A DNA stretch of 31,976 nt from a virus, in IMG/VR virus record IMGVR_UViG_3300012346_000177, positions 1-31,976 of that record. One strand, given 5' to 3'. Under the pieces are notes generated by a model. It made no database searches. It was not told where the DNA came from and was given only the letters and a program-made list of their open reading frames with translations. A program made the translations under genes and the position numbers. This document shows positions 14,613-31,976 of this stretch, piece after piece; within the stretch, counting starts at the first letter, position 1; every line of letters starts with the position of its first letter.

Positions 14613-15062
14613 ATGACATTAAACCAAATAGTCAAAGAACTGACAACGATAGGAAACGCACACGAACAAATTAATTTTGTTTATTTTGGTGACGTTTGGG
14701 AACGTTTAAGTAATGGTGAGGTAACTTATCCTGCAATGTTTTTCACTTTAACCGGTGCGAATGTTGCTGCAAAGGAAATTAGTTATTCGTTCAGTCTTTA
14801 TTTTATGGACAGAATGTTAATGGAAGAAACAAACGAAACTGAAGTATTATCAGATATGACACAGGTTGCCGGTGACGTTGTTGCGCAATTAAGGTTTCCA
14901 ATGGATTATCAAAAGGTTACTTGGACATTGAACCAAAATTTGCCTGTGACATTCTATACAGAAAGCGACCCGGATTTGTTAGCGGGCGTTAAATTAGATG
15001 CGATTTTAACAGTACCATTTATTAACAACAGGTGCGAAGTACCTTCAAATTATACTTATTAA
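14613..15062 (+). CDS. hypothetical neck/tail protein
   Basis: 149-aa ATG ORF between the adaptor and the tail fibre, TAATG-coupled to the fibre gene. Confidence 0.5.
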   Translation: MTLNQIVKELTTIGNAHEQINFVYFGDVWERLSNGEVTYPAMFFTLTGANVAAKEISYSFSLYFMDRMLMEETNETEVLSDMTQVAGDVVAQLRFPMDYQKVTWTLNQNLPVTFYTESDPDLLAGVKLDAILTVPFINNRCEVPSNYTY

Positions 15063-17143
15063 TGGAATCAAAGAAAATAAACCAATTAGCGACAGAACTT
15101 ACGCCGGCGTTGTCAGATTTGACAATTATAGGCGACCCGACAACAGGAATAAGTAAAAAAATTACGCTTTCACAAATGGCGTCTTTATTTACGGGTACTG
15201 TTGAGGAATACGCAAACCTTGCTTCGTTTCCTTTGGTTGGTGTTGCTGACACTATTTACATTGCTTTAGATACAAACGTTTTATATCGTTGGGACACGGG
15301 GTTAACTTCTTACGTTGAATTGTCGCCTAACATTATTAATTCATTGGTATTTAGTGACGCAAACGGATTTGACGGTACAATTAGTTTAGTTGGTTCAGTT
15401 GCAACGCTTACAATTACAACCGCTTTAACAACAGGTTCAGTTGGTTTTATTGGCGCTTCAGGCGCTTTATTACAGGATAATGCAAACTTCTTTTGGGACG
15501 ATACCAACAACAGATTGGGTATTGGTACAAACGCGCCAACAACTGCAATTGATACTTTTGGGTCAGGTATTATTACACGCGTAAACGGTACTTCAACAAA
15601 CAATGCATTTATTGGTTTTGCAAGCGCAGGAACTAATAAATGGTCAGTTGGTAATGTTCAGTCAGACCATAGATTTAGGATTTATAGTGAAGCAAATACA
15701 AGCGAATTAGTTTCAGTTTTACAAACAGGCGAATTTGGTATTGGTATTGCAAACCCAACAACAAAGCTACATATTGACGGCGGCGCAAATGCTTTGATTG
15801 CAAATTTAGACGCAAACGTTTCTGTTGCAAAAAGTATTTCGTTCCGTTCAGACAATAGCAATAGAATAAATTTAGAAGTTTCAGGCACAGAATCAGGTTC
15901 AAATGCAGGTGCTAACTTTTTTATTAGACGTTATTCAGACGCAGGTGCATTAATTGATACACCTTTAACAATTACGCGTTCAACAGGTGCAATTACTTTG
16001 GCGGGCGATTTAAGTGGTACAACTGCGACGTTTAGCGGAGCATTTACATTATCTTCATTAACAACAGGATATATTACAAAAGTTGGTACAAGCGGTTTAA
16101 TTACATTTAGTAAATTATATGAAAATTCATTTGGTGGTATTCAAATAAATAATACTGACACAAATGGAGCGCAATATTATACAACAAGATTAGGACCAAG
16201 AGGAAACAATGATGGGGTATCTTCTACTTGGTATATTCCATCAAATGCCGCACCAACTATTGGGTGGGGTACTTCTGCAACTTCAACTGCATTTAATATT
16301 TCAACTTTAGCCGACGACGTTACAAGATTATATATATCAAGTGGTGGTAACGTAGGGATAGGCGTTACACCAAGCAATTGGAATACATTGACACCTTTAC
16401 AAATACGAAACGTTTCTATTGCGGGTTATACTTCAGGTACAACACACGTTTTTTACGCTTCTTCTAATTTTTATTATGGTGAATCAGGCGGCGGCGATAA
16501 ATATATAACAAACGGCGCAGCTTCTTTATATAGTCAAAGTTTAGGTTCTCATAATTGGTATACTGCACCTGTTAATAGTTCAGGAGCTGGCGCAGCATTA
16601 AATTTTGTTCAAATTATGGGGTTGTCAGGTGGTGGTTTAACAGTTAGAGGATTAGATACAGATTTTTTAGTATTAACTAATACGACAGATACAAATAAAC
16701 AATTATTAATTGGATTTAATACAAGTTCAAACTATGCAAGAATACAAGCTATTTGGCAAGGCAATAGTTATAGGACGTTATATTTAAATAACGAAGGCGG
16801 CGCAGTTTATGCAGGTGGTGTAAGATTAGATACACTTTCGGATTTAAGAATGAAAGATAGTATACAACCAATTGAAAGCGCTTTAAATAAAGTTTTATCA
16901 ATTACAGGTAAAAAGTTTCATTTAAAAGATGAAGAAGAAGGTAAATTAAGATATGGTTTTATTGCGCAAGAATTAGAAGGTATTTTAGATGAATTTGTAA
17001 TTCAAACTGCATTGACTTATAAAGATGAAATTACAGGAAATGAAGTTAAAAATTTAAAGTCAATTGAAAATTGGGCGTCTTCTTGGGCAGCATTATTAGT
17101 TGAAGCGATAAAAGAATTAAATAATAAAATTGATTCAAAATAA
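15062..17143 (+). CDS. tail fibre with a C-terminal intramolecular chaperone (peptidase S74-like) domain
   Basis: ATG 15062 (MESKKINQLATEL...). Recurrent GIG(T/I/V)xxP motifs. C-terminal DLRMKDSIQPIESALNKVLSITGKKFHLKD...YGFIAQELEGILDEFV is the endosialidase-type auto-cleaving chaperone signature. Confidence 0.8.
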   Translation: MESKKINQLATELTPALSDLTIIGDPTTGISKKITLSQMASLFTGTVEEYANLASFPLVGVADTIYIALDTNVLYRWDTGLTSYVELSPNIINSLVFSDANGFDGTISLVGSVATLTITTALTTGSVGFIGASGALLQDNANFFWDDTNNRLGIGTNAPTTAIDTFGSGIITRVNGTSTNNAFIGFASAGTNKWSVGNVQSDHRFRIYSEANTSELVSVLQTGEFGIGIANPTTKLHIDGGANALIANLDANVSVAKSISFRSDNSNRINLEVSGTESGSNAGANFFIRRYSDAGALIDTPLTITRSTGAITLAGDLSGTTATFSGAFTLSSLTTGYITKVGTSGLITFSKLYENSFGGIQINNTDTNGAQYYTTRLGPRGNNDGVSSTWYIPSNAAPTIGWGTSATSTAFNISTLADDVTRLYISSGGNVGIGVTPSNWNTLTPLQIRNVSIAGYTSGTTHVFYASSNFYYGESGGGDKYITNGAASLYSQSLGSHNWYTAPVNSSGAGAALNFVQIMGLSGGGLTVRGLDTDFLVLTNTTDTNKQLLIGFNTSSNYARIQAIWQGNSYRTLYLNNEGGAVYAGGVRLDTLSDLRMKDSIQPIESALNKVLSITGKKFHLKDEEEGKLRYGFIAQELEGILDEFVIQTALTYKDEITGNEVKNLKSIENWASSWAALLVEAIKELNNKIDSK

Positions 17144-20335: not shown

Positions 20336-20498
20336 GTGGACATTGTCCCAACAGGAAGAATTTTTTACAAAAAAGCTTCAGGAATTATATAATATTGAAA
20401 ATGATATTCGCCAAAATTTAGCAAAGATTCGCGGCGGGAATAGGGTTGAATTTAAGGAAATAGAACGTCCTGACGAAGCGGAATTAAAAGGATTATAA
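20310..20498 (+). CDS. hypothetical protein
   Basis: 62-aa ATG ORF, TAATG-coupled to the next gene. Confidence 0.5.
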   Translation: MRMPKGFNKWTLSQQEEFFTKKLQELYNIENDIRQNLAKIRGGNRVEFKEIERPDEAELKGL

Positions 20499-20932
20499 TG
20501 AAACTTTTAAAAATATATAGCAAAGGCAAAATTCTAAACTTTGACGCTTATATTCAGCTTCAGGAATTAGACCGTACCAACCCAAATTTCAAGGGTTGCG
20601 GTAACGAGTTTAAACAGAATCGGGATTGGTGGGTTATATTAGATAAAAAGAAAACAATTGTTGCTTACTGCGGTTCTATTTATACGCAGGGAATTTGCAT
20701 ATTCAACCGCGCGTGGGTTGACAAAAGGTTTAGGGGTTTAGGAATACAAAAGAAGCTTATTAAAATAAGATTAAAAGCGGCTAAAGAAAGCTGCTATATT
20801 GCAATTACATACACTACAAAGGACAATTACCCGTCAGCAAACAATTTAATTGCCTGCGGATTTAAGTTTTATTTCCCCGAATACGCATACGGCGGGGACG
20901 AAATGTTGTATTTCCACAAAAATTTGGGTTAA
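20498..20932 (+). CDS. GNAT-family N-acetyltransferase
   Basis: Acetyl-CoA motif A-like VDKRFRGLGIQKKLIKIRL and a typical GNAT length of 144 aa. Confidence 0.65.
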   Translation: MKLLKIYSKGKILNFDAYIQLQELDRTNPNFKGCGNEFKQNRDWWVILDKKKTIVAYCGSIYTQGICIFNRAWVDKRFRGLGIQKKLIKIRLKAAKESCYIAITYTTKDNYPSANNLIACGFKFYFPEYAYGGDEMLYFHKNLG

Positions 20933-20968: not shown

Positions 20969-20976
20969 TAAATAAC

Positions 20977-21008
20977 TTTGTTTACATTGTGTAAAACCTG
21001 TATATTTG
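20977..21008 (+). promoter_or_regulatory. Bacteroidota-type promoter (-33 TTTG, 20-nt spacer, -7 TATATTTG)
   Basis: TTTG 20977..20980 and TAtaTTTG 21001..21008, 18 nt before ATG 21026. Confidence 0.65.
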
Positions 21009-22915: not shown

Positions 22916-23347
22916 ATGCAAACATTACAAAGCGAAATTTTAGACTTTTATAAGTCGCACAGACAAAGTTTAAGACTGTTGCACAATATAATGAAAGCAA
23001 ACAATTTAATAAAAAAGGACGAAATTATTATTGATTCTGAATTGTCAAATGAAGCAAAGAAAATATCTTTGATTGTTGAAGAAATATTTGACGTTAATAT
23101 GTCAGTAAAAAGCCGAACTAAAAATATTGTTGACGCAAGGAAGGCAGCTGCGTATTTAATTAGAAAATACACAACTTTGTCATTAAGCGAAATAAGGCAA
23201 TATATTGGTGTTGGCGACCATACGACAGTTATGTACAATATCAATTCGGCAAAGGATTTAATTGACACCGCAGATTGGTTCAGAAATAAAATTGCATTCC
23301 TTGAAAAAAGAATTGAAAAAAGCATTATATTTGCAGACAGGAAATAA
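22916..23347 (+). CDS. DnaA domain IV-like HTH DNA-binding protein
   Basis: IVDARKAAAYLIRKYTTLSLSEIRQYIGVGDHTTVMYNINSAKDLI parallels the DnaA C-terminal motif (...RQIAMYL...SL..IG..FGGRDHTTVMHA..KI). Confidence 0.7.
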   Translation: MQTLQSEILDFYKSHRQSLRLLHNIMKANNLIKKDEIIIDSELSNEAKKISLIVEEIFDVNMSVKSRTKNIVDARKAAAYLIRKYTTLSLSEIRQYIGVGDHTTVMYNINSAKDLIDTADWFRNKIAFLEKRIEKSIIFADRK

Positions 23348-23358
23348 ATAAACGCGTT

Positions 23359-24147
23359 ATGGTACAACGCAATTACGAATATATTGGGTCAAAGGATTTT
23401 CGGGAAGTACCATTTCCCGGCGTCCCGCGACCCTTTTTTTATATGAAATATTTTTTACACGATAGCAATGCGTTTGAAGATGAAAAGGTTGCTTTGCTTT
23501 TTATGAAATACGGATATGAAGGTTTGGGGTTATTTTATACGATACTTGAAAAATTGGCAAAACAGGAAAAACCTGTAAATACAGAAGTTTTAAAAATGCA
23601 ATTAAAGGTTGGCAAAAAGCTTGAAAAATGTTGGAACTTTATGGAAAGTATTGACATAATATCTTCAAACAATGGTGAAACTTTTAACAAACAATTGCTA
23701 AACTTTAGTGAAAAGTACAAGATAAAAAAAGAAAAAAACCTTAAAAGAATTTCACAATGGCGTGAAAATCAAGACATTGCGGAAAATGTAACGCATTACA
23801 AAAGTGTTCGTAACGACCATAAAGAAAAGAAAAGTAAAGTAAATGAAAGTAAAGTAAATAATATTATTACTGTTCAACCTATGGTTGACCCACAAACAAA
23901 TTTTTTAATTTTAATTGAACCGTTTAAAAATACTTTGTCAGAATCTTACGAAGAATTTATTGCTTATTGGTGTGAACAATCAAAAAGTGGTAAATTGCGT
24001 TATGAATCAGAAAAGTTTTTTGACGTAAAACGCCGCGTTAACACGTGGTTACAAAACCGAATAAAATATGGAAATACAAAAAATACTGACCCAACCGCCG
24101 CAAGTCGCAAAAGAATGGAAGGACTATCCGATTGGGTTAATAGCTAA
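23359..24147 (+). CDS. DUF4373-like replication initiation/organiser protein
   Basis: N-terminus FFYMKYFLHDSNAFEDEKVALLFMKYGYEGLGLFYTILEKLA is typical of DUF4373 proteins in Bacteroidota phages. Confidence 0.6.
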   Translation: MVQRNYEYIGSKDFREVPFPGVPRPFFYMKYFLHDSNAFEDEKVALLFMKYGYEGLGLFYTILEKLAKQEKPVNTEVLKMQLKVGKKLEKCWNFMESIDIISSNNGETFNKQLLNFSEKYKIKKEKNLKRISQWRENQDIAENVTHYKSVRNDHKEKKSKVNESKVNNIITVQPMVDPQTNFLILIEPFKNTLSESYEEFIAYWCEQSKSGKLRYESEKFFDVKRRVNTWLQNRIKYGNTKNTDPTAASRKRMEGLSDWVNS

Positions 24148-24811
24148 AGAAGATTTACCAATTGTTGAAGCTTTTAAGGGCGAAAAATTAGCAGTTGTTG
24201 ACGTTCATAATTTAAAAAGTACGTTGGCTTATATTTTCACTTTGATTGGTTTAACAAGGTTACCGGACAAAATGGAATTGGATATTATTGAAGACTATAT
24301 TCGTACAACTTACCCGCATTTTACAATAAACGAATTCAGGATTGCGTTTAAAATGGCGGTACAGGGTCGTTTTGATTGCAATACAGACCATTTTGAAAAG
24401 TTTTCACCTAAATACATATCCCAAATAATGAATGCCTATAAAGCCAAAGCAAACGAAGTTCGTAAAAATATTCCGCCGCCGCCTGAACCGCCCGTTCCGC
24501 AATTGACAGACGACCAAATTGTTGAGTTTACAAAGAATGAATGGTTAAATGGTAAACGTGAGGACTTTAACAAGGTATTCAACGCGGATAAAGTATTTGC
24601 TATCTTATTGAAACAGAAGAAGTTAAACTTTACACCTGAAGAAATTTTGTACACGATTAAGGTAGTGCGCGAAGACAATTTGCAAAGGCTAAATAAAATG
24701 CACCCTTTGGACGCAAAACAATTCAGCAAAAACATAAAAAATGAAGATTTTATTGAAACACAATGTAAAAAATTAGCTTTAGTTAAATATTTTGAAAACT
24801 TATCAAATTAA
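24068..24811 (+). CDS. hypothetical replication-module protein
   Basis: 247-aa ATG ORF with an 80-nt overlap with the upstream gene. Confidence 0.5.
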   Translation: MEIQKILTQPPQVAKEWKDYPIGLIAKEDLPIVEAFKGEKLAVVDVHNLKSTLAYIFTLIGLTRLPDKMELDIIEDYIRTTYPHFTINEFRIAFKMAVQGRFDCNTDHFEKFSPKYISQIMNAYKAKANEVRKNIPPPPEPPVPQLTDDQIVEFTKNEWLNGKREDFNKVFNADKVFAILLKQKKLNFTPEEILYTIKVVREDNLQRLNKMHPLDAKQFSKNIKNEDFIETQCKKLALVKYFENLSN

Positions 24812-24937
24812 ATATTCTCATTACGGAACAATAAAATATTGTTATACCGATAATTTTACCGACTTTTACGCAAATTATCCTGAAGTAAAGACAAAGGAAA
24901 ACAGACTTGAATTAAAAAAAGAATTTTACGAAAAAGT

Positions 24938-25252
24938 ATGGACATATCGGCAAACGACTTGACAAAATGGGCAAAAACAAACCTTGAATGTATCGGGTAC
25001 AGGTTGAACAGGGTAAATAATATTCCATTTGGTAAACGTAAAGGTACGATTCAAAAAGGTTGGGCGGACTTACAAGGGTACACAGAAAACGGCGTTTATG
25101 TAGCGGTTGAAGTTAAAAAGATTGGCGACCGTTTAAGCGTTGAACAAAAAGAAAGGTTAAAAGATATTTACGAATGTGGTGGAATTGTTTATATTTGTAC
25201 TGAAGTGGATAATAAACCAACTTTAATTGAATGGTCAAAAATGAAATTTTAG
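24938..25252 (+). CDS. VRR-NUC domain nuclease (PD-(D/E)xK)
   Basis: WADLQGY...VYVAVEVKK...LSVEQKERLKDIYECGGIVYIC fits the D...ExK...Q VRR-NUC pattern. Confidence 0.7.
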   Translation: MDISANDLTKWAKTNLECIGYRLNRVNNIPFGKRKGTIQKGWADLQGYTENGVYVAVEVKKIGDRLSVEQKERLKDIYECGGIVYICTEVDNKPTLIEWSKMKF

Positions 25253-25731
25253 CGGAATATTGGGATTCAAAGGAAGTAAACGACGCCTTTGGGAAAATGC
25301 AACCTGAAGAATTGCAGTACGATTTGAAAGCTGAAGTTTTTTTGGTTCTTTGTGAAATGGACGAATCAAAGTTGGTTGGAATGTACGAACGAAACGAATT
25401 GAAATTTTACATTGTGCGAACTATGTTAAATATGATTAAAAGCGACAGAAGTACATTTTTTAAAAATTATAGGAATTACACGGAGTTTGTAGGCAATGAA
25501 GTAAACAGGGAATTGACACGATTAAATGAAGAACCGACAGAATTGTTTGAAAAACTTGAAAGGAATTTAGAGGATTTACATTGGTACAATAAGGAAATAT
25601 TGAAGCTTTATGCGATTGACTTTAAGAAGAACGCTAAAGAATTAAGTCGTAAAACCGGCATTCCATATATGTCAATCGTAAGGACTATAAATAAAACCAA
25701 AAAATTAATGAAAACAAACATACGCAAATGA
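25231..25731 (+). CDS. phage sigma-70 family (ECF-like) sigma factor
   Basis: Region-2-like FYIVRTMLNMIKSDRSTFFKNY and region-4 HTH ELSRKTGIPYMSIVRTINKTKKLM. Confidence 0.6.
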   Translation: MVKNEILAEYWDSKEVNDAFGKMQPEELQYDLKAEVFLVLCEMDESKLVGMYERNELKFYIVRTMLNMIKSDRSTFFKNYRNYTEFVGNEVNRELTRLNEEPTELFEKLERNLEDLHWYNKEILKLYAIDFKKNAKELSRKTGIPYMSIVRTINKTKKLMKTNIRK

Positions 25732-25967
25732 TTTTATCAATTATAACCGCCGTCTGTGCATCACTATTTATTAACGATATACATAACCTTCCCTTTAAAT
25801 GGAAGGCAAATTTCAAGCCATTTAATTGCGGAAGTTGCTTGGCTGCGTGGCTTGCACCAATACACTATTTCGCACCTGAATTAATCCAAAACATTACTTC
25901 AACAATGTTTATTGCCGGATTTTTAGCGCCTATCTTATCAAAATTAATTTGGAATTTATGGAAATAA
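25728..25967 (+). CDS. small membrane protein with a CxxC motif (candidate anti-sigma partner)
   Basis: 79 aa, ATGA-coupled to the sigma gene. Hydrophobic N- and C-terminal helices with FNCGSC between them. Confidence 0.4.
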   Translation: MILSIITAVCASLFINDIHNLPFKWKANFKPFNCGSCLAAWLAPIHYFAPELIQNITSTMFIAGFLAPILSKLIWNLWK

Positions 25968-26290
25968 AAGAAGAACACCGTAATTGGTTAGAAGCCAATA
26001 TTGGTAATTATGAAACTGCAAAGAACGGTTTTATCAGAAACCTTGAATTGTCAGAACTTCAAATGTACGAACATATTTACAGATTGTATTTAGACCCTAA
26101 TTTTTTATTGTCTGTTTGGTGTGGCGCTTGTAAGTACGAAATGATTATGCGTTTGTACAAATGGTATGAGCAACAACCAAAAAGTTTACCAACAGAAAAC
26201 ATTGAAGAAGGTAATTATTTTTATGAAACACCTGTTGAAATAGTTTTAAACCAACAACCAAAGAAACGCGGACGTAAACCAAAAAAATAA
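25958..26290 (+). CDS. hypothetical protein with a basic AT-hook-like tail (KKRGRKPKK)
   Basis: ATG 25958; the track start 25949 is a TTG. TAATG-coupled to the next gene. Confidence 0.55.
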   Translation: MEIKEEHRNWLEANIGNYETAKNGFIRNLELSELQMYEHIYRLYLDPNFLLSVWCGACKYEMIMRLYKWYEQQPKSLPTENIEEGNYFYETPVEIVLNQQPKKRGRKPKK

Positions 26291-26793
26291 TGGCTAATTT
26301 TATACACCCAACCGCCATAATTGGCGACAACGTTATTTTAGGCGACAATAATTACATTGGCGCTTATTGTATTATAGGCGACCCGGCTGAACACAAAAAG
26401 CATTGGGACGAAGAAAAAGGCAAAGTTTATATTGGCAATAACAATATTATTACAGGATTGGTTACCATTGACGCAGGGACAAAAGATATTACATTTATAG
26501 GGAATAATTGTTTTGTAATGAAACACGCGCATATTGGACACGATTGTTTAATTCAGGATAATGTGACGATAAGTTGCGGCGCAAAAATTGGCGGGCATTC
26601 AATTGTAAAAGAATATTCAAACATTGGATTAAATGCCGTACTTCATCAATTTACAACTATTGAACGCGGTTGTATGGTTGGCGCAAGTGCATTTATAAAA
26701 GGTGCAACAGAAGAATTTTCAAAATATGCAGGTGTTCCCGCACGTAAAATTGGAATAAATGAATATAGCCGTAATATTATTAACCCAAAATAG
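26290..26793 (+). CDS. LpxA-like left-handed beta-helix (hexapeptide-repeat) acyltransferase, truncated
   Basis: Continuous [LIV]Gxxxx repeats. KHAHIGHDC, GGHSIV and LNAVLHQF line up with E. coli LpxA NAHIAHDC, AGHVSV and MTAVHQF. It ends right after the beta-helix. Confidence 0.6.
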   Translation: MANFIHPTAIIGDNVILGDNNYIGAYCIIGDPAEHKKHWDEEKGKVYIGNNNIITGLVTIDAGTKDITFIGNNCFVMKHAHIGHDCLIQDNVTISCGAKIGGHSIVKEYSNIGLNAVLHQFTTIERGCMVGASAFIKGATEEFSKYAGVPARKIGINEYSRNIINPK

Positions 26794-27448
26794 GGCAGAC
26801 CTGACGAAACAGGTCATTGACAGGAATTTTTACAATAGCGGTCACGACGCGCATTGTTATCTTATTGACAACGGAAGCGACGACGAACAGTTTTCTGAAA
26901 TACAATCATATTATAATTGGCATTTTGCAAGTTGGTCACTACATAAAAGGGGGATTGCCGCAGGTGTTAATTTAGGTTTAGCCATTACACAGGAATACGA
27001 CGGCGTTTGTATATTGGCAAACGATATACTACTTCCTGACAATTGGCTTAAAAATTGGGTTATGTTTTCAAAACGTGTATCAAAAACAGGCATTATTGGC
27101 ATACATTGCGTTGAAGAATTGCCGCCATTGGTTGACGGAATACATAAAACGCATACACCTTTTGGAAATAACTTCCTTACAAGGGAATTAATTGACACAA
27201 TTGGCGGTTATAACAAAGAATACGACCCGTACGGAATGCAGGACAGGGATTACGGCGAACGCGCAACCATTGCCGGGTTTACTAATTACTATTTACCGGA
27301 ATTACGTTCTGAACATATAGGTCACGACGTTGGCAACGGGACAGAATACAGAAGAATGAAGGACGAAAGTTTAATGCGCGCACAGGCGGTTTGGGAAAAA
27401 TACCAACCAATTTATCATAAAGAAAAAAAGATTAAATGCGAATTTTAG
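26759..27448 (+). CDS. family 2 glycosyltransferase (GT-A fold)
   Basis: IAVILLTQNRADL, YLIDNGSDDEQ, ILANDILLP, YGMQDRDYGERATIAGF. Confidence 0.7.
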   Translation: MNIAVILLTQNRADLTKQVIDRNFYNSGHDAHCYLIDNGSDDEQFSEIQSYYNWHFASWSLHKRGIAAGVNLGLAITQEYDGVCILANDILLPDNWLKNWVMFSKRVSKTGIIGIHCVEELPPLVDGIHKTHTPFGNNFLTRELIDTIGGYNKEYDPYGMQDRDYGERATIAGFTNYYLPELRSEHIGHDVGNGTEYRRMKDESLMRAQAVWEKYQPIYHKEKKIKCEF

Positions 27449-28443
27449 CAATTACGAGCAAAACAAGTGGGGTTGGTTATCATAGAATTATGATGCCGTT
27501 GGTAAATATGAAGAAGGATTATTGTTTAATGACCGACACAGTAAGCGAAGAAACTTTTGAAGGTAATTATGATATTGTGGTTATGAATCGTATGTTGGCA
27601 AACATAACGCCCGAACAAATGTCTGAATGGCGAAAAAAGTACGGTTTTAAATTAATAGTTGACAACGACGATTATTGGCATTTAGACCCTTCGCATATAC
27701 TTTACGAACGATATGTTCTAAATAACGTCCCGCAACAGATTATAAATTGGATTCAGATTGCTGACCTTTGCACAGTTACGCACGAACGATTGGCTGAAGA
27801 AGTTTACCAATACAATCAGAATGTTGAAATATTACCAAATGCGATTCCATACGGTGAAGAACAATTTAAAGATTTTAAAACAGAATCAGACATTGTTCGT
27901 TTGTTTTGGTCAGGTTCGGGAACGCACGGTAAGGATATGGAAATACTACGTAACCCAATGAAGCGAATAAATTTCCCGGTTAAAACTGTAATTGCAGGAT
28001 ATAATGAAGGCGAAAAGCCAATTTGGGACGGAATGATTGCGGCATTTACTAACGGGTTGAAACTTAACCCTAAAATATACAATTACAACGAAGTTACTTC
28101 ATATATGGCGGCTTATTGCGATTCAGATATTTCACTTATCCCTTTATTAGATACTAAATTTAATTCAATGAAGTCTAATTTGAAGGTACTTGAAACCGCA
28201 GCAAAGAAGAACCCGGCAATTGTTAGCAACGTTCACCCGTACAGGGGGTTTTATCCCGCTTGTCACGTCAATAGCCAAAAAGATTGGTATTATTGGATTA
28301 AGTTGTTAACCAAAGACGCAGACGCCCGTAAAAGCTACGGAAATGCGTTGTACGACTATTGCAATAAGAACTTCAACTTGCACGAAGTAAACAAGCGCCG
28401 TTTTGCTATTTATAATAAACTAATTAGCAATGCCGGTAATTAA
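27436..28443 (+). CDS. GT-B-type glycosyltransferase (GT1/GT4-like)
   Basis: MRILAITSKTSGVGYHR N-terminus. C-terminal half FWSGSGTHGKD ... KSNLKVLETAAKKNPAIVS resembles the nucleotide-sugar binding half. Confidence 0.5.
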   Translation: MRILAITSKTSGVGYHRIMMPLVNMKKDYCLMTDTVSEETFEGNYDIVVMNRMLANITPEQMSEWRKKYGFKLIVDNDDYWHLDPSHILYERYVLNNVPQQIINWIQIADLCTVTHERLAEEVYQYNQNVEILPNAIPYGEEQFKDFKTESDIVRLFWSGSGTHGKDMEILRNPMKRINFPVKTVIAGYNEGEKPIWDGMIAAFTNGLKLNPKIYNYNEVTSYMAAYCDSDISLIPLLDTKFNSMKSNLKVLETAAKKNPAIVSNVHPYRGFYPACHVNSQKDWYYWIKLLTKDADARKSYGNALYDYCNKNFNLHEVNKRRFAIYNKLISNAGN

Positions 28444-28843
28444 ATGTTCAAACGGGAAATACAGAATTGGGTCAGGTGCTTGTATTTATGATACAGAAGA
28501 AAGCGCGCAAAGGGCGTGGGCGGCAATTAGGGTTTCAATGGTCAATTCATACAACGATTACCCAAAAGCGGCAATACTAAACGCGCAAAAGGCGTTAAAT
28601 ATAAGAAACGAAAACAATTCAACTTGCGGTACACCTGTTGGTTGGGCGCGTGCAAACCAATTAGCAAGTGGCGAAAACATAACACGTGACACAATCGCAC
28701 GAATGGCGTCTTTTGAAAGGCACAGACAAAATTCAAAAGGTGACCCTAAAAAAGACTGCGGTGCGTTAATGTGGTTGGCGTGGGGTGGCGACGAAGGTAT
28801 TGAATGGGCGCAAAGAAAACTAAAACAAATTGACAACCAATAA
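28430..28843 (+). CDS. conserved phage protein (domain often seen fused to MuF-like/virion proteins)
   Basis: GKYRIGSGACIYDTEESAQRAWAAI and GTPVGWARANQLASGENITRDTIARMASFERH...LMWLAWGG resemble a recurrent phage domain. I cannot name the family. Confidence 0.4.
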   Translation: MPVIKCSNGKYRIGSGACIYDTEESAQRAWAAIRVSMVNSYNDYPKAAILNAQKALNIRNENNSTCGTPVGWARANQLASGENITRDTIARMASFERHRQNSKGDPKKDCGALMWLAWGGDEGIEWAQRKLKQIDNQ

Positions 28844-29025
28844 TGGAATACTTTATTCAGTATGGCAACTTTAGGTTTTCGTTTCACATATTGCCGCGTA
28901 ATATATTGTTAGGCATAAATATAGGCGAAGCGGTTGACGAAAATAACGAATTCCATAATTCAATTGCAATTGGCTTACTTTTTGTTGCTTTCACCTTTGT
29001 ACTATTTGATGAAAAATTATACTAA
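28843..29025 (+). CDS. hypothetical small protein
   Basis: 60-aa ATG ORF, TAATG-coupled upstream, fills the space before the HNH ATG. Confidence 0.4.
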   Translation: MEYFIQYGNFRFSFHILPRNILLGINIGEAVDENNEFHNSIAIGLLFVAFTFVLFDEKLY

Positions 29026-29266
29026 AATTTATTTGGATTACTTTGGGTACGGAATTGAAGATTTTATACCCTGCGAAGTATGCGGAAACAAGGCGGTTGA
29101 CATTCACCACATAGAAGCAAGGGGAATGGGGGGAACTAAAGAAAAGGACAGGATTGAAAATTTAATGGCGCTTTGCCGTTATTGTCACGTCGTAATGGGG
29201 GACACAAAGACGCATTTGGAATATTTAAAAGATAAGCATAAAAAGGCATTAAATGGCAAAGATTAA
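29009..29266 (+). CDS. HNH endonuclease
   Basis: CEVCGNKAVDIHHIEARGMGG...ENLMALCRYCH. ATG 29009 is preferred over the TTG at 28934. Confidence 0.8.
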   Translation: MKNYTKIYLDYFGYGIEDFIPCEVCGNKAVDIHHIEARGMGGTKEKDRIENLMALCRYCHVVMGDTKTHLEYLKDKHKKALNGKD

Positions 29267-29375
29267 AGGCGACAGTCAAAAGACTAATTTCGGAAAAAGA
29301 AAGTGCGGACACGCGAAGAAAAGTTATAACAAACACAATCCACGACCAAAGGCGTACAAAGGTCAGGGAAGGTAA
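29253..29375 (+). CDS. very basic 40-aa peptide (possible)
   Basis: Hand-translated: MAKIKGDSQKTNFGKRKCGHAKKSYNKHNPRPKAYKGQGR. Overlaps the HNH stop and is followed by a hairpin. Confidence 0.35.
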   Translation: MAKIKGDSQKTNFGKRKCGHAKKSYNKHNPRPKAYKGQGR

Positions 29376-29379
29376 ATTT

Positions 29380-29406
29380 TTGTCGTTGGGTGAATAAGAA
29401 CGACAA
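29380..29406 (+). terminator. 8-bp hairpin (ttgtcgtt / aacgacaa), no T tract
   Basis: 29380..29387 pairs with 29399..29406, with an 11-nt loop. Confidence 0.4.
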
Positions 29407-29481
29407 GTATCTTAAAATAAGCACAGGTTTGACCATTTACACCCAAATAAGGTATTTATATCGTTGGCGTCCTTAAAAATG

Positions 29482-29490
29482 GTATCTTTA
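29482..29490 (+). promoter_or_regulatory. GTATCTTTA box (-7-like TAtcTTTa) upstream of terS
   Basis: One mismatch from TAnnTTTG, 18 nt before ATG 29508. The same 9-mer recurs at 29888..29896. Confidence 0.4.
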
Positions 29491-29507
29491 AAAACAAAGG
29501 TATTACA

Positions 29508-29888
29508 ATGGCAAAGGAAGTCAAACAAAAACACGGGGGGACATTAAAGGTTCTTCAGAAAGGCGAAACGGCAAACCCGAACGGGCGACCGCGTAAGTAT
29601 GTCAGCCTATTAAAAGAACAGGGGTACAAATTAGCCGAAATAAACGATTCAATTCAGGCGCTTATGTCAATGACACCTAAAGAGTTGGAAGCGGTTACAA
29701 AGAACCCGGACGCGACAGTACTTGAATTAACAGTTGCAAAAGCAATGGTTAAGTCAATGAATAATGGAAGTCTTTATTCAATGGACACTTTATTGTCACG
29801 TGTTTACGGTAAACCAAAAGAACAGGTTGACGTTCAACAGGACACGAAGATTGAAGTCGTATTTGTTGACGGCAAAACCATTTTGTAG
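29508..29888 (+). CDS. terS: terminase small subunit
   Basis: N-terminal GETANPNGRPRKY motif and an HTH-like segment, upstream of terL. Confidence 0.65.
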   Translation: MAKEVKQKHGGTLKVLQKGETANPNGRPRKYVSLLKEQGYKLAEINDSIQALMSMTPKELEAVTKNPDATVLELTVAKAMVKSMNNGSLYSMDTLLSRVYGKPKEQVDVQQDTKIEVVFVDGKTIL

Positions 29889-29896
29889 TATCTTTA
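29888..29896 (+). promoter_or_regulatory. second GTATCTTTA box upstream of the inserted small ORF
   Basis: Identical 9-mer, 14 nt before ATG 29910. Confidence 0.35.
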
Positions 29897-29909
29897 TAAA
29901 AATAAACCT

Positions 29910-30116
29910 ATGACACCAAAAGAAAAAGCAGAAAAGTTATTTAATGATTTTTATGTTGAAACATATGGGTTTCATAAATTTGAAGCGAAGAAATATGCTA
30001 TAATGTGCGTTAGTGAAATTTTAAAATATTGTGAAGAAAATGAATTTCAACCACAATTTGGTATGACATATGAACAATATTTTGATGAAGTAAAACAAGA
30101 AATAGAAAAACTATAA
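29910..30116 (+). CDS. hypothetical protein (AT-rich insert between terS and terL)
   Basis: 68-aa ATG ORF, visibly lower GC than its flanks. Confidence 0.6.
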   Translation: MTPKEKAEKLFNDFYVETYGFHKFEAKKYAIMCVSEILKYCEENEFQPQFGMTYEQYFDEVKQEIEKL

Positions 30117-31268
30117 ATGCGCATAGAACTTCCAACACCGCACGCGAATCAGGAAAAGATATTAAACGCCGACAAGCGTTTTATTGTCGTTATGTGTGGA
30201 CGTCGTTTTGGGAAGTCTGAATTGTCGCAAATATTAATAATCAAAGAAGCATTAAAGGGCGGACAGGTTGCATACATTACGCCAACATACGGATTGGCTG
30301 AAGTGTTTTTTGAACGATTGTCAAAGGTACTTCCATTTAAAAGCAATATTAAAAAGCTTAAAATATATTGTCCCAACGAAGGGTCAATTGAATTTTTTAC
30401 AGGTGAACGTTTAGACAACTTACGCGGTCGTAAGTTTCATTTGGTTATTGTGGACGAAGCCGCGTTTATTTCAGATTTAGAAGACGGTTGGAATAATAGC
30501 ATTCGCCCGACGCTGACCGACTACGAAGGGAAGGCGGTATTCCTTTCAACGCCACGTGGCAAAAACTTTTTTTATTCCTTGTTTATGAAACAAGGCGAAA
30601 ACGATTGGCAAAGCTTTAAATTTAGTACGTACGACAACCCGCATATTAACCCGCGCGAAATAGACGAAGCACGAATTCAATTACCTGAAGTTGTATTTGA
30701 ACAGGAATATATGGCGAACCCGTCCGAGAATAGCGCAAACCCTTTTGGTAACGCATTCATTAAACGTTGCGTAAAACCTATTTCAGCGCAACCTATTGTT
30801 TGTTATGGCATTGACCTTGCAAAGTCTGTGGATTATACAGTTATTATTGGATTGGACAAAGACGGCAACGTGGCGTATTTTGACCGCTTCCAAATGGATT
30901 GGCATAATACCAAAGAAACAATTAAAAGATTGCCGCCTGCGCCAATTGTGGTGGATTCAACAGGGGTTGGCGACCCTATATTAGAAGACTTGCTTCGCGA
31001 AGGGGTAAACATTGAAGGTTTAAAGTTTACAAGTCAATCCAAACAACAGTTAATGGAAGGTTTGGCTTCAGCGATTCAACAGGGACGAATCGGATTCCCG
31101 GAAGGGGTTATTGTGGACGAATTGGACGTTTTTGAATATCAGTTTACTTCGCACGGCGTAAGGTATTCAGCGCCTTCAGGATTCCACGACGATACCGTAA
31201 TGGCTTTGGCTTTAGCGTGGCAAAACCACAATATCAAACGCGGTTCAGGGCGTTATGCCTTCGCTTAA
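30117..31268 (+). CDS. terL: terminase large subunit
   Basis: Walker A MCGRRFGKSE, Walker B HLVIVDEAAF. Nuclease-domain acidic motifs YGIDLAKSVDYTV, VVDSTGVGD, FHDDTVMALALA. Confidence 0.85.
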   Translation: MRIELPTPHANQEKILNADKRFIVVMCGRRFGKSELSQILIIKEALKGGQVAYITPTYGLAEVFFERLSKVLPFKSNIKKLKIYCPNEGSIEFFTGERLDNLRGRKFHLVIVDEAAFISDLEDGWNNSIRPTLTDYEGKAVFLSTPRGKNFFYSLFMKQGENDWQSFKFSTYDNPHINPREIDEARIQLPEVVFEQEYMANPSENSANPFGNAFIKRCVKPISAQPIVCYGIDLAKSVDYTVIIGLDKDGNVAYFDRFQMDWHNTKETIKRLPPAPIVVDSTGVGDPILEDLLREGVNIEGLKFTSQSKQQLMEGLASAIQQGRIGFPEGVIVDELDVFEYQFTSHGVRYSAPSGFHDDTVMALALAWQNHNIKRGSGRYAFA

Positions 31269-31774: not shown

Positions 31775-31927
31775 ATGGCAAACAGACTAAAAACCAAAGA
31801 AGACAAATTAAACGAGCATTACGCAGTAATGCAAAAGCAATACGCAAAAGATAGTATTAGCTTATTAAATGCCGGAATCATTATTTTAGCCTGCTTTATT
31901 ATAGCGGGAATCCTTGAAAATATTTAA
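31775..31927 (+). CDS. small tail-anchored membrane protein (50 aa)
   Basis: ATG 31775 (MANRLKTKEDK...). C-terminal TM segment GIIILACFIIAGIL. Confidence 0.45.
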   Translation: MANRLKTKEDKLNEHYAVMQKQYAKDSISLLNAGIIILACFIIAGILENI

Positions 31928-31976
31928 AACAAACAACTATGAAACTAACTGCTATGCAAGACTTAATTGATGATTT
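31922..31976. repeat. Terminal direct repeat copy 2
   Basis: Identical to 1..55. Confidence 0.9.

Follow-up and report, generated by a model that had tools for sequence, protein, structure and literature searches.

A phage gene cassette coupling a short LpxA-like acyltransferase to two glycosyltransferases, with a possible role in virion glycosylation

Glycosyltransferases encoded by phages have known targets in DNA, in glycans of the host surface and, in mycobacteriophages, in the virion; for most phage glycosyltransferase clusters no function is stated in the literature searched. Glycosyltransferase cassettes, including those of virulent phages, have been described before. Here we analyzed a stretch of viral DNA of 31,976 nucleotides (nt) (IMG/VR record IMGVR_UViG_3300012346_000177; the whole stretch is called the window below), in which three overlapping genes encode an acyltransferase resembling the lipid A enzyme LpxA and two glycosyltransferases. 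The comparisons below show that this trio is a single conserved functional unit under selection, made up of three enzymes predicted to be soluble and cytoplasmic. Its composition is uncharacterized: a short LpxA-like acyltransferase is coupled, or fused, to a GT2-type glycosyltransferase and joined by a phage-specific GT-B enzyme, and the combination recurs across phage lineages. An earlier reading of the DNA, made from the letters alone (the original prediction), had proposed one sugar-modification unit of three reading frames overlapping by 35 nt and 13 nt. Both overlaps are present on the plus strand, and the unit itself is borne out by co-occurrence and gene fusion. The three genes, with protein lengths in amino acids (aa) and the evidence for each, are as follows.

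26290..26793, plus strand: short LpxA-like left-handed beta-helix acyltransferase, 167 aa (Pfam, NCBIfam and PDB profiles, alignment with LpxA)
26759..27448, plus strand: soluble GT-A fold (GT2-type) glycosyltransferase, 229 aa (Pfam, PHROGs, AlphaFold/Foldseek)
27436..28443, plus strand: soluble GT-B-like glycosyltransferase of the phage-rich family phrog_7162, 335 aa (PHROGs, homologues)

The closest described system in which phage proteins are the acceptors is that of the mycobacteriophages, whose virion glycosylation was reportedly described by Freeman et al. in 2023 (Che8 gp110, Corndog gp38). Two reports that summarize it state that capsid and tail-tube proteins are modified by phage-encoded glycosyltransferases, in temperate as well as in virulent mycobacteriophages (PMC12619734; PMC12363180). 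These glycosyltransferases are soluble, as are those of the window cassette. The two systems differ in that the mycobacteriophages have a Gram-positive host and acceptor tails that are not evident in the capsid protein of the window phage. No Mycobacterium phage was found among the tblastn matches of the GT2 (one record) or of the GT-B-like protein (143 records) in the phage collection. To our knowledge, no LpxA-like acyltransferase belongs to mycobacteriophage virion glycosylation.

The gtrABC and Oac systems of temperate enterobacterial phages likewise combine phage-borne glycosylation and acylation of glycans. The Gtr systems work with three membrane components: a flippase, a bactoprenol glucosyltransferase anchored in the membrane, and an integral transferase that faces the periplasm. 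The acyltransferase Oac is likewise an integral membrane protein. In contrast to these membrane-embedded components, the enzymes of the window trio have unrelated folds and are predicted to be soluble: neither the acyltransferase nor the GT2 nor the GT-B-like protein has a predicted transmembrane segment, and none of the three matches the corresponding Pfam families. A Gtr/Oac-type mechanism is therefore excluded. The gtrABC and Oac genes are carried near the integrase or attachment site of temperate phages, whereas the window genome has no integrase, although one distant version of the module (L102, described below) lies near one.

Phage phi92 offers a parallel in a virulent phage. Its GT-B homologues gp163 and gp164 follow a GT-A protein of ~228 aa, as in the window, but phi92 has no LpxA-like gene. 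The phi92 proteins gp165 and gp166 were considered as counterparts of the window's GT2 and acyltransferase and were rejected, as they have no significant similarity to them. No function is stated in the literature searched for the phi92 glycosyltransferase run gp166-gp163. Glycosyltransferase clusters are present in virulent phages such as phi92 and in virulent mycobacteriophages, and the L102 module is integrated in a chromosome; the contrast that the original prediction drew between glycan cassettes of temperate phages and this genome is weaker than it appeared.

Conservation and mobility of the trio

The window is a complete, circularly closed tailed-phage genome of ~31.9 kb, because its ends (1-55 and 31922-31976) are an exact 55-bp direct repeat. 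All of its genes lie on the same strand. The window's proteins match PHROGs families for portal, prohead protease, capsid, tape-measure-like, tail fiber, endolysin and exonuclease proteins, together with Erf, a replication initiator and terminase, and no tRNA genes were found in it. As the original prediction had noted, integrase or repressor genes are missing: no integrase, recombinase or repressor family was matched by the window's proteins (PHROGs, Pfam) or is listed in the precomputed Pfam annotations of relatives nearly identical to it. The GC content of the cassette (37.7%) matches that of the genome (36.1%). A megablast comparison of the cassette region with GenBank phages gave no match at the DNA level.

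In IMG/VR, 496 viral loci were found to encode a relative of the acyltransferase, whose protein clusters contain hundreds of member sequences. To count the co-occurrence of the trio, 88 close relatives were fetched; the order acyltransferase-GT2-GT-B is kept in every one of the 83 that have at least 2.4 kb of downstream sequence. The ratio of nonsynonymous to synonymous substitution (dN/dS) is 0.07-0.12 for the acyltransferase, 0.05-0.11 for the GT2 and 0.04-0.11 for the GT-B-like protein, compared with 0.03-0.07 for the terminase. Beyond these close relatives, the same trio is found at 30-58% identity in four distant lineages, which are listed here.

L010: 202-kb contig of a Chitinophaga metagenome-assembled genome (MAG), Terminase_3-type; cassette directly upstream of terS/TerL
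L102: integrated element within a chromosome of 5.18 Mb; its neighbors are a tyrosine integrase, Thoeris and an MmeI-like system
L104: 123-kb contig; cassette directly upstream of terS/TerL
L108: 29.6-kb viral contig, Terminase_3-type; cassette between portal and Mu-F-like head genes

The trio moves as a module between phage backbones: the large terminase of the window is of the Terminase_6N type, and those of L010 and L108 are of the Terminase_3 type. In L102, the module is followed (L102:10773-19708) by a C5 DNA methyltransferase gene, an MmeI-like type IIL restriction-modification gene and a Thoeris pair (ThsB TIR, ThsA Macro), and this defense island at the prophage end closes with a Bacteroidota-type tyrosine integrase.

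The acyltransferase and the GT2 are particularly close partners. In L010, L102 and L104 the hexapeptide gene has a GT2 homologue next to it, and in L108 and P0373 the two enzymes form a single polypeptide of 423 aa; in three other representatives the hexapeptide domain is fused to other domains. The natural fusion of the acyltransferase and the GT2 into one protein is strong evidence that the two act together. The coupled gene run itself extends beyond the three genes.

Variation within the cassette includes gene insertion and allele replacement.

L075:8474-9094 (also L076, L079, L083, L084, L089, L095-L101): gene for a 206-aa S-adenosylmethionine (SAM)-methyltransferase-like protein, inserted between the acyltransferase and GT2 genes in 13 close relatives
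L094:8480-9061 (also L072, L090, L092, L093): GT2 replaced, in five loci of an otherwise close sub-lineage, by an allele of 193 aa that is 31-34% identical

The replaced GT2 looks like a cassette swap within a conserved frame. Two further relatives, L027 and L037, lie on one contig (IMGVR_UViG_3300043436_001856, 63,203 bp) that carries two differing copies of the whole region, with acyltransferases 96% and 90% identical to that of the window. This contig probably joins two related phages in a chimeric concatemer and does not represent a larger genome or a prophage.

The short LpxA-like acyltransferase

The 167-aa protein consists of hexapeptide repeats throughout (Pfam Hexapep, E = 7.6e-21), as had been predicted, and no other Pfam family was matched. 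Among the NCBIfam models, those of LpxA score highest (NF003657, 116.4 bits; TIGR01852, 115.3 bits), followed by NeuD/PglB/VioB (87 bits), LpxD (46 bits), WbbJ (31 bits), maltose O-acetyltransferase (19 bits) and LacA (18 bits). All of these scores are far under the cut-offs, which for the two LpxA models are 226 bits (NF003657) and 231.05 bits (TIGR01852). In a search of PDB sequences, the top match is 8E62 (E = 1.1e-36, 47% identity over 156 aligned residues); ranked below it are ~17 genuine LpxA structures (E = 1e-23 to 5e-10), LpxD, and then PglD- and WlbB-type enzymes.

Alignment with LpxA from an annotated E. coli genome (structure PDB 1LXA; 31% identity) shows that the phage protein shares the beta-helix, the coil register and both external loops. 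Residues H81/H84/D85, H103, H119/Q120 and N157 correspond to LpxA H122/H125/D126, H144, H160/Q161 and N198. The predicted catalytic pair is His84-Asp85, equivalent to the catalytic base His125 of LpxA and Asp126. The motifs and loop register that the original prediction had matched to LpxA line up exactly in this alignment, and when LpxA is weighed against the generic LacA/WbbJ/PglD clade, LpxA ranks first and the catalytic residues are kept. Of the named models and structures, those of LpxA match best, and the active-site residues are retained; we therefore judge the resemblance to LpxA to be genuine.

The phage protein is unlike LpxA in several other respects. It has no counterpart of the extra N-terminal coils of LpxA, and it stops where the C-terminal helical domain of LpxA starts: the match covers positions 37-196 of the 254-264 in the LpxA profiles, and no match to PF13720 (Acetyltransf_11), which represents the helical domain, was found in the 167-aa protein. 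The absence of this domain had been predicted correctly. At the position of LpxA H191 the phage protein has P150, which lies inside a G-x-P-A-[KR] motif. Such an end is typical of hexapeptide acetyltransferases that depend on coenzyme A (CoA). The last ~10 residues of the protein are mainly overlap sequence for the next gene, because the inserted methyltransferase of the sub-lineage described above ends in the same tail (...SRNIINAK).

The structure 8E62 is a 189-residue chain deposited as ‘UDP-N-acetylglucosamine acyltransferase’. It has the same short architecture, ending after the helix, and shares with the phage protein the catalytic His-Asp, the GGH and HQ motifs and the G-x-P-A-K end. 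It has a Tyr where both the phage protein (H81) and LpxA (H122) have the first histidine. A search for literature on 8E62 found no relevant paper.

An exhaustive search of 1.84 billion cluster representatives placed the phage protein in a large family. There are 99 representatives at E < 1e-30, and the best 150 are mostly 160-240 aa long. PF13720 is found in only 19 of the 145 nearest representatives, and in these 145 residues E34, H81, H84, D85, H119, Q120, P150 and N157 are invariant or nearly so. Some acyltransferase variants (P0059, P0099 and P0106, 185-191 aa) have an insertion of 18-24 residues after HKKYW in the first external loop; this loop aligns with the LpxA loop just past K76.

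In species-representative genomes, relatives are almost exclusively from Bacteroidota. The cellular forms at loci L011, L012 and L014 are 182-190 aa long and 44-47% identical to the phage protein; they have the same domain architecture with one more N-terminal coil. Around the members examined lie genes for a Wzx flippase and a Wzy-like polymerase, along with those for a DegT aminotransferase, a methyltransferase and a glycosyltransferase. The last two kinds of enzyme also accompany some of the phage variants, whereas the flippase, polymerase and aminotransferase are absent from the phage. The glycosyltransferase beside the cellular gene in L011 was considered as a GT-B homologue and rejected, having no homology to the phage GT-B. 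A Bacteroidota protein that does contain PF13720 (L016) is more distant from the phage protein, with 38% identity.

Based on the missing C-terminal domain, the sub-cut-off score, the replacement of H191 by P150 and the cellular relatives in polysaccharide loci, we assign the 167-aa protein by its sequence not to LpxA but to a large, uncharacterized family of sugar acyltransferases that are short, resemble LpxA and belong to polysaccharide pathways. Of the original claim of an LpxA-family enzyme, the resemblance and the residues stand; membership does not, given about half of the cut-off score, no PF13720 and a proline in place of H191. True LpxA identity was rejected on the score, the missing domain and the absence of a lipid A context.

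The same evidence bears on whether the gene could be a true auxiliary lipid A gene, with a phage LpxA that acylates UDP-N-acetylglucosamine (UDP-GlcNAc) with hydroxyacyl-acyl carrier protein (ACP) and so sustains or alters host lipid A. Among named families, LpxA ranks first in both the profile and the PDB comparisons, the four LpxA active-site histidines and N198 are kept, and both the Joint Genome Institute (JGI) product name of the protein, UDP-N-acetylglucosamine acyltransferase, and the auxiliary metabolic gene lists of virome studies point to LpxA. A score of 116 bits against cut-offs of 226-231 argues against this, as do the missing C-terminal domain and N-terminal coils and the proline at H191. 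Unlike the LpxA gene with its lipid A operon, the phage gene is never beside lpxC/D/B or fabZ: in every phage locus the lipid A and fatty acid genes of the lpxD-fabZ-lpxA-lpxB context are absent beside it and GT2 and GT-B genes are found instead. A glycosyltransferase gene is coupled to it in all cases and fused to it in some, and the true Bacteroidota LpxA (L016) is further from it than the short forms of polysaccharide loci. We give a lipid A role a negligible probability.

The original prediction knew of no LpxA-family enzyme described in a tailed phage. This needs correction: virome surveys list ‘lpxA’ as a viral auxiliary gene, by automated annotation only, and PHROGs contains a relative of the acyltransferase, phrog_5353, whose function is not annotated. 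For short acyltransferases of this type the ‘lpxA’ or lipid A label is probably misleading.

The glycosyltransferases and the candidate acceptors

The 229-aa GT2 matches phrog_2456 ‘glycosyltransferase’ (E = 3.8e-9) and scores 23.2 bits against Pfam PF00535, marginally under the cut-off of 23.3. Its AlphaFold model has a predicted local distance difference test score (pLDDT) of 92.6, and the top 50 matches of the model in a Foldseek search of PDB are all GT-A enzymes (E down to 2.7e-10), in agreement with the predicted GT2 enzyme. The structural neighbors include WrtF, an O-polysaccharide fucosyltransferase, PcManGT, TarP, SpsA, ppGalNAc-transferases and K4CP, with query-normalized TM-scores of ~0.6-0.75 and identities below 20%. 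TarP, the wall teichoic acid GlcNAc transferase of an S. aureus prophage (PDB 6H4F), is a phage-encoded GT-A enzyme like the GT2; the identity of 15-18% and the query-normalized TM-score of 0.61-0.66 indicate no more than the resemblance general to GT-A enzymes, and the acceptor of TarP is the ribitol phosphate of Gram-positive walls. As far as the model goes, the resemblance of the GT2 to these structures is generic and does not identify its acceptor. Residues D37, N88-D89, D162 and D164 of the GT2 are invariant. Its relatives at 46-53% identity with examined context are again from phages or prophages. The only GenBank phage record with a relative, the single tblastn match in the phage collection, is a metagenome-assembled freshwater podovirus, in which the major capsid gene is directly followed by a glycan-tailoring cluster that contains this relative.

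The 335-aa protein matches phrog_7162 ‘glycosyltransferase’ (E = 7.7e-60) and is 31% and 28% identical to phi92 gp164 and gp163, respectively, over 95% of its length; both are annotated as GT-B fold. The predicted GT-B-like character draws on this family and homology; the matches to Pfam (E = 0.0035-0.02) and, in a search of PDB sequences with a more diverse profile, to the GT4 enzymes MshA (E = 0.013) and PglA (E = 0.016) are only marginal. The AlphaFold model has a pLDDT of 36.7, with an alignment limited to sequences that are at least 82% identical. The 143 records matched by tblastn include homologues from ~140 phi92-like, rV5-like and Klebsiella phages, usually in two copies per genome. 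Further homologues are found in L010, L102, L104 and L108, and gp5 of Streptomyces phage Zuko is 28% identical. In Zuko, the gp4-gp5 pair (L106:1319-3384) consists of a UDP-glucose dehydrogenase gene and the GT-B homologue, directly upstream of the terminase; the paired dehydrogenase gene suggests that the GT-B family can transfer glucuronic acid in this phage. Sequence comparisons of the window's glycosyltransferases detected no similarity to the T4 glucosyltransferases. At the distances searched, both glycosyltransferase families appear to be phage-specific.

We propose that, during infection, the trio would build a short glycan from host nucleotide sugars. Each of the two glycosyltransferases would add one sugar, and the acyltransferase would decorate one of them, probably acting on a UDP-HexNAc-type sugar or on that sugar after transfer. 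The G-x-P-A-[KR] end where LpxA has H191 suggests that the acyl donor would probably be a short acyl-CoA rather than acyl-ACP. The glycan would differ between close relatives through the added methyltransferase or the swapped GT2. As the weakest step of the proposal, the acceptor may be a protein of the phage's own head or virion rather than lipid A, by analogy with the mycobacteriophages.

Several lines of evidence bear on this acceptor. The GT-B family spans phages of Enterobacteria, of Bacteroidota and of Gram-positive Streptomyces, so an acceptor bound to one envelope type is unlikely. In the window, L010 and L104, terS/TerL come directly after the cassette, and in Zuko the GT-B homologue is placed likewise. 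The cassette of L108 is flanked by portal and Mu-F-like head genes, the GT2 relative of the freshwater podovirus belongs to a cluster that follows the capsid gene, and the 137-aa protein whose gene is coupled to the GT-B gene has a domain otherwise embedded in head proteins. This repeated place beside or inside packaging and head genes leans toward a phage-intrinsic acceptor, as do the phage and prophage contexts of the GT2 relatives. Overall, the evidence mildly favors virion proteins and disfavors DNA. Glycosylation of virion head proteins by the cassette, proposed on the mycobacteriophage analogy, is the reading that we tentatively adopt. A slightly more tentative proposal is that the cassette represents an acyl-decorated virion glycan system, which would be the first outside Actinobacteria phages, with a previously uncharacterized short LpxA-like acyltransferase and a phage-specific GT-B family common to abundant freshwater Bacteroidota phages, phi92/rV5-like coliphages and Streptomyces phages. 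That the LpxA-like enzyme transfers a long acyl chain, which would give a lipidated virion glycan, is very improbable.

A number of observations weigh against virion glycosylation. The gene-neighborhood evidence for the acceptor is circumstantial, and no acceptor is directly evidenced. A Ser/Thr-rich C-terminal tail was not found on the major capsid protein, and none of the structural proteins has a convincing one. The position beside packaging genes may simply be one where accessory genes are often located. Within the window, the cassette closes a replication and regulation gene block: the gene run 22916-29266 has no intergenic gap above 30 bp and is followed by a gap of 241 bp before terS/TerL, and membership of the cassette in a late structural operon is not clear. 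The L102 module sits among DNA methyltransferases and defense cargo, with no structural genes around it. The closest solved structures to the GT2 act on O-polysaccharide (WrtF) and teichoic acid (TarP), and the nearest cellular relatives of the acyltransferase sit in O-antigen-type loci. For the acyl donor and the chain length, the proposal depends on one sequence motif.

Several of these observations would instead fit modification of a host-envelope glycan. In this case the soluble enzymes would act at the inner membrane face on undecaprenyl-phosphate-linked intermediates of O-antigen or capsule, and the acylated sugars would alter the surface of the infected or lysogenic cell and block superinfection or the adsorption of progeny to infected cells and debris. 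The closest cellular kin of the acyltransferase (44-47%) belong to Bacteroidota Wzx/Wzy/glycosyltransferase/methyltransferase/DegT clusters, and WrtF and the prophage-encoded TarP are the best structural neighbors of the GT2. The weak matches of the GT-B-like protein include PglA, which has a lipid-linked acceptor, and the small membrane proteins p79 and p60 flank the enzymes. The GT2 allele swap and the methyltransferase insertion resemble the diversification of surface-glycan loci, the module is found in an integrated element with an integrase (L102), and such a role for phage lipopolysaccharide genes is discussed in virome papers. On the other hand, both glycosyltransferase families are phage-specific at the distances searched, and the GT-B family is found across phages of three bacterial phyla, including Gram-positives, a pattern that is hard to reconcile with a host-specific lipid-linked acceptor. 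Conversion genes are not usually conserved at a dN/dS close to that of the terminase, as seen here in a 32-kb genome that is apparently virulent; the cassette proteins include no flippase, ligase or membrane glycosyltransferase; and the cassette is repeatedly found within or beside head genes. We consider envelope modification rather unlikely, while regarding it as a serious contender.

The position of the cassette, at the end of the replication block and just ahead of the packaging genes, would also fit hypermodification of the phage genome, in which the trio glycosylates DNA shortly before packaging and the phage evades restriction. The GT-A and GT-B enzymes of the phage DNA glycosyltransferase clusters described by Pyle et al. 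have the same generic structural neighbors as the window's glycosyltransferases, resembling TarP (GT-A) and MshA, BshA and PglH (GT-B), and genes for N6 and C5 DNA methyltransferases flank the L102 module. In phage DNA glycosylation, the hydroxylated pyrimidine is supplied by a co-encoded ThyA homologue, or by a C5-methyltransferase together with a 5mYOX/TET dioxygenase (bioRxiv 10.1101/2023.12.21.572611). The clusters of Pyle et al. always encode enzymes that make 5-hydroxymethyl- or 5-hydroxy-pyrimidines, whereas the window genome has none: no thymidylate-synthase homologue, C5-methyltransferase or TET-like dioxygenase was found in the genome or its annotated relatives. The complete genome encodes no DNA polymerase beyond an exonuclease subunit, and similarity to the T4 enzymes is lacking, as noted above. 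Furthermore, phi92-like and rV5-like phages, which have two GT-B homologues each, are reported to be exceptionally susceptible to restriction-modification. This susceptibility and the lack of enzymes for hydroxylated bases make DNA an unlikely acceptor, and we rate it as quite improbable.

A last alternative has no macromolecular acceptor. The trio could drain a host nucleotide sugar such as UDP-GlcNAc, or make a small glycoconjugate, and in this way reprogram envelope synthesis or counter host defense. All three enzymes are soluble, no acceptor can be identified, and the cassette is in an early or middle gene block. However, two glycosyltransferases with tailoring enzymes and allele swapping point to a defined glycan, and there is no match to known defense or anti-defense models (PADLOC, which has few anti-defense genes). 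Such metabolic interference is improbable, if somewhat less so than DNA modification.

Neighboring genes, host and implications

Four genes adjoin the cassette.

25231..25731, plus strand: 166-aa regulator-like protein (homologues in L010, L102 and L104)
25728..25967, plus strand: 79-aa protein bearing a conserved KPFxCxxCLxxWL motif and two hydrophobic segments; travels with the cassette
25949..26290, plus strand: small protein with a conserved WCxxC motif and a basic C-terminal tail; TAATG junction to the acyltransferase gene
28430..28843, plus strand: 137-aa protein with a head-associated domain (phrog_2859, homologues)

The 166-aa protein accompanies the cassette in the window, L010, L102 and L104 despite their differing terminases, and both small Cys-motif proteins do so in the window, L010 and L104. 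By its sequence, the 166-aa protein may be a regulator, or of the sigma type, and appears to have a helix-turn-helix at its C-terminus. The sigma-factor reading is unconfirmed, as no Pfam or PHROGs family was matched and the sole hint from PDB profiles is FliA (E = 0.25). A PADLOC scan of the gene block found nothing meaningful, in a database with few anti-defense genes.

The gene of the 137-aa protein overlaps the GT-B gene by 14 nt. It is missing from 9 of 71 testable relatives and is thus an accessory part. Its core (residues ~40-135) corresponds to a domain that other tailed viruses have inside capsid fusion proteins, prohead proteases and head-morphogenesis proteins. The core is 61% identical in haloarchaeal HGTV-1, where the protein is annotated as a prohead protease; in haloarchaeal HRTV-28 the domain sits between portal and Mu-F domains, and in Roseobacter phage CRP-811 it forms the N-terminus of an 816-aa capsid fusion protein. 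The domain is also present in capsid fusion proteins of Synechococcus phages and is a very widespread head-associated domain. No match to the 137-aa protein was found among PDB sequences.

Elsewhere in the window, an HNH endonuclease gene (28934-29266) lies directly upstream of the genes for a small (DUF5681-like) and a large terminase (29508-31268), and the order at 28934-31268 is the arrangement of HNH-assisted packaging systems. A second, unrelated acetyltransferase gene, of the GNAT family (144 aa, 20498-20932), is located in the early region and kept in relatives. The tail fiber protein (15032-17143) has a C-terminal intramolecular chaperone domain of the Peptidase_S74 type, according to the Pfam annotation of near-identical relatives.

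Promoter and terminator scans of the window gave results at chance level only. A scan for the Bacteroidota-type motif TAnnTTTG found a modest intergenic enrichment (5 of 22 matches), with none adjoining the cassette. Two such (-7) motifs, 28 bp apart at 20973-21008, lie in the 568-bp gap upstream of the Erf and replication block, and this pair would fit a Bacteroidota host. One relative was binned with a Chitinophagaceae MAG, and the L010 lineage is on a Chitinophaga contig. Many source samples appear to share a JGI identifier range with MAGs from Lake Mendota. The phage is probably an abundant freshwater Bacteroidota phage.

The cassette matters in that it is very abundant, is selected as strongly as the terminase and recurs in several phage lineages, and its short LpxA-like acyltransferase is routinely misreported in virome surveys as a lipid A auxiliary gene. 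Knowing the modified target would correct the ‘lpxA’ annotation and give a function to a large family of Bacteroidota polysaccharide loci. The GT-B part is directly testable in cultured relatives, namely phi92, the phi92-like isolates of BASEL and Streptomyces phage Zuko. If the virion is indeed the acceptor, virion glycosylation could extend to phages that infect Gram-negative bacteria, which would bear on the stability of phages and on their adsorption and recognition.

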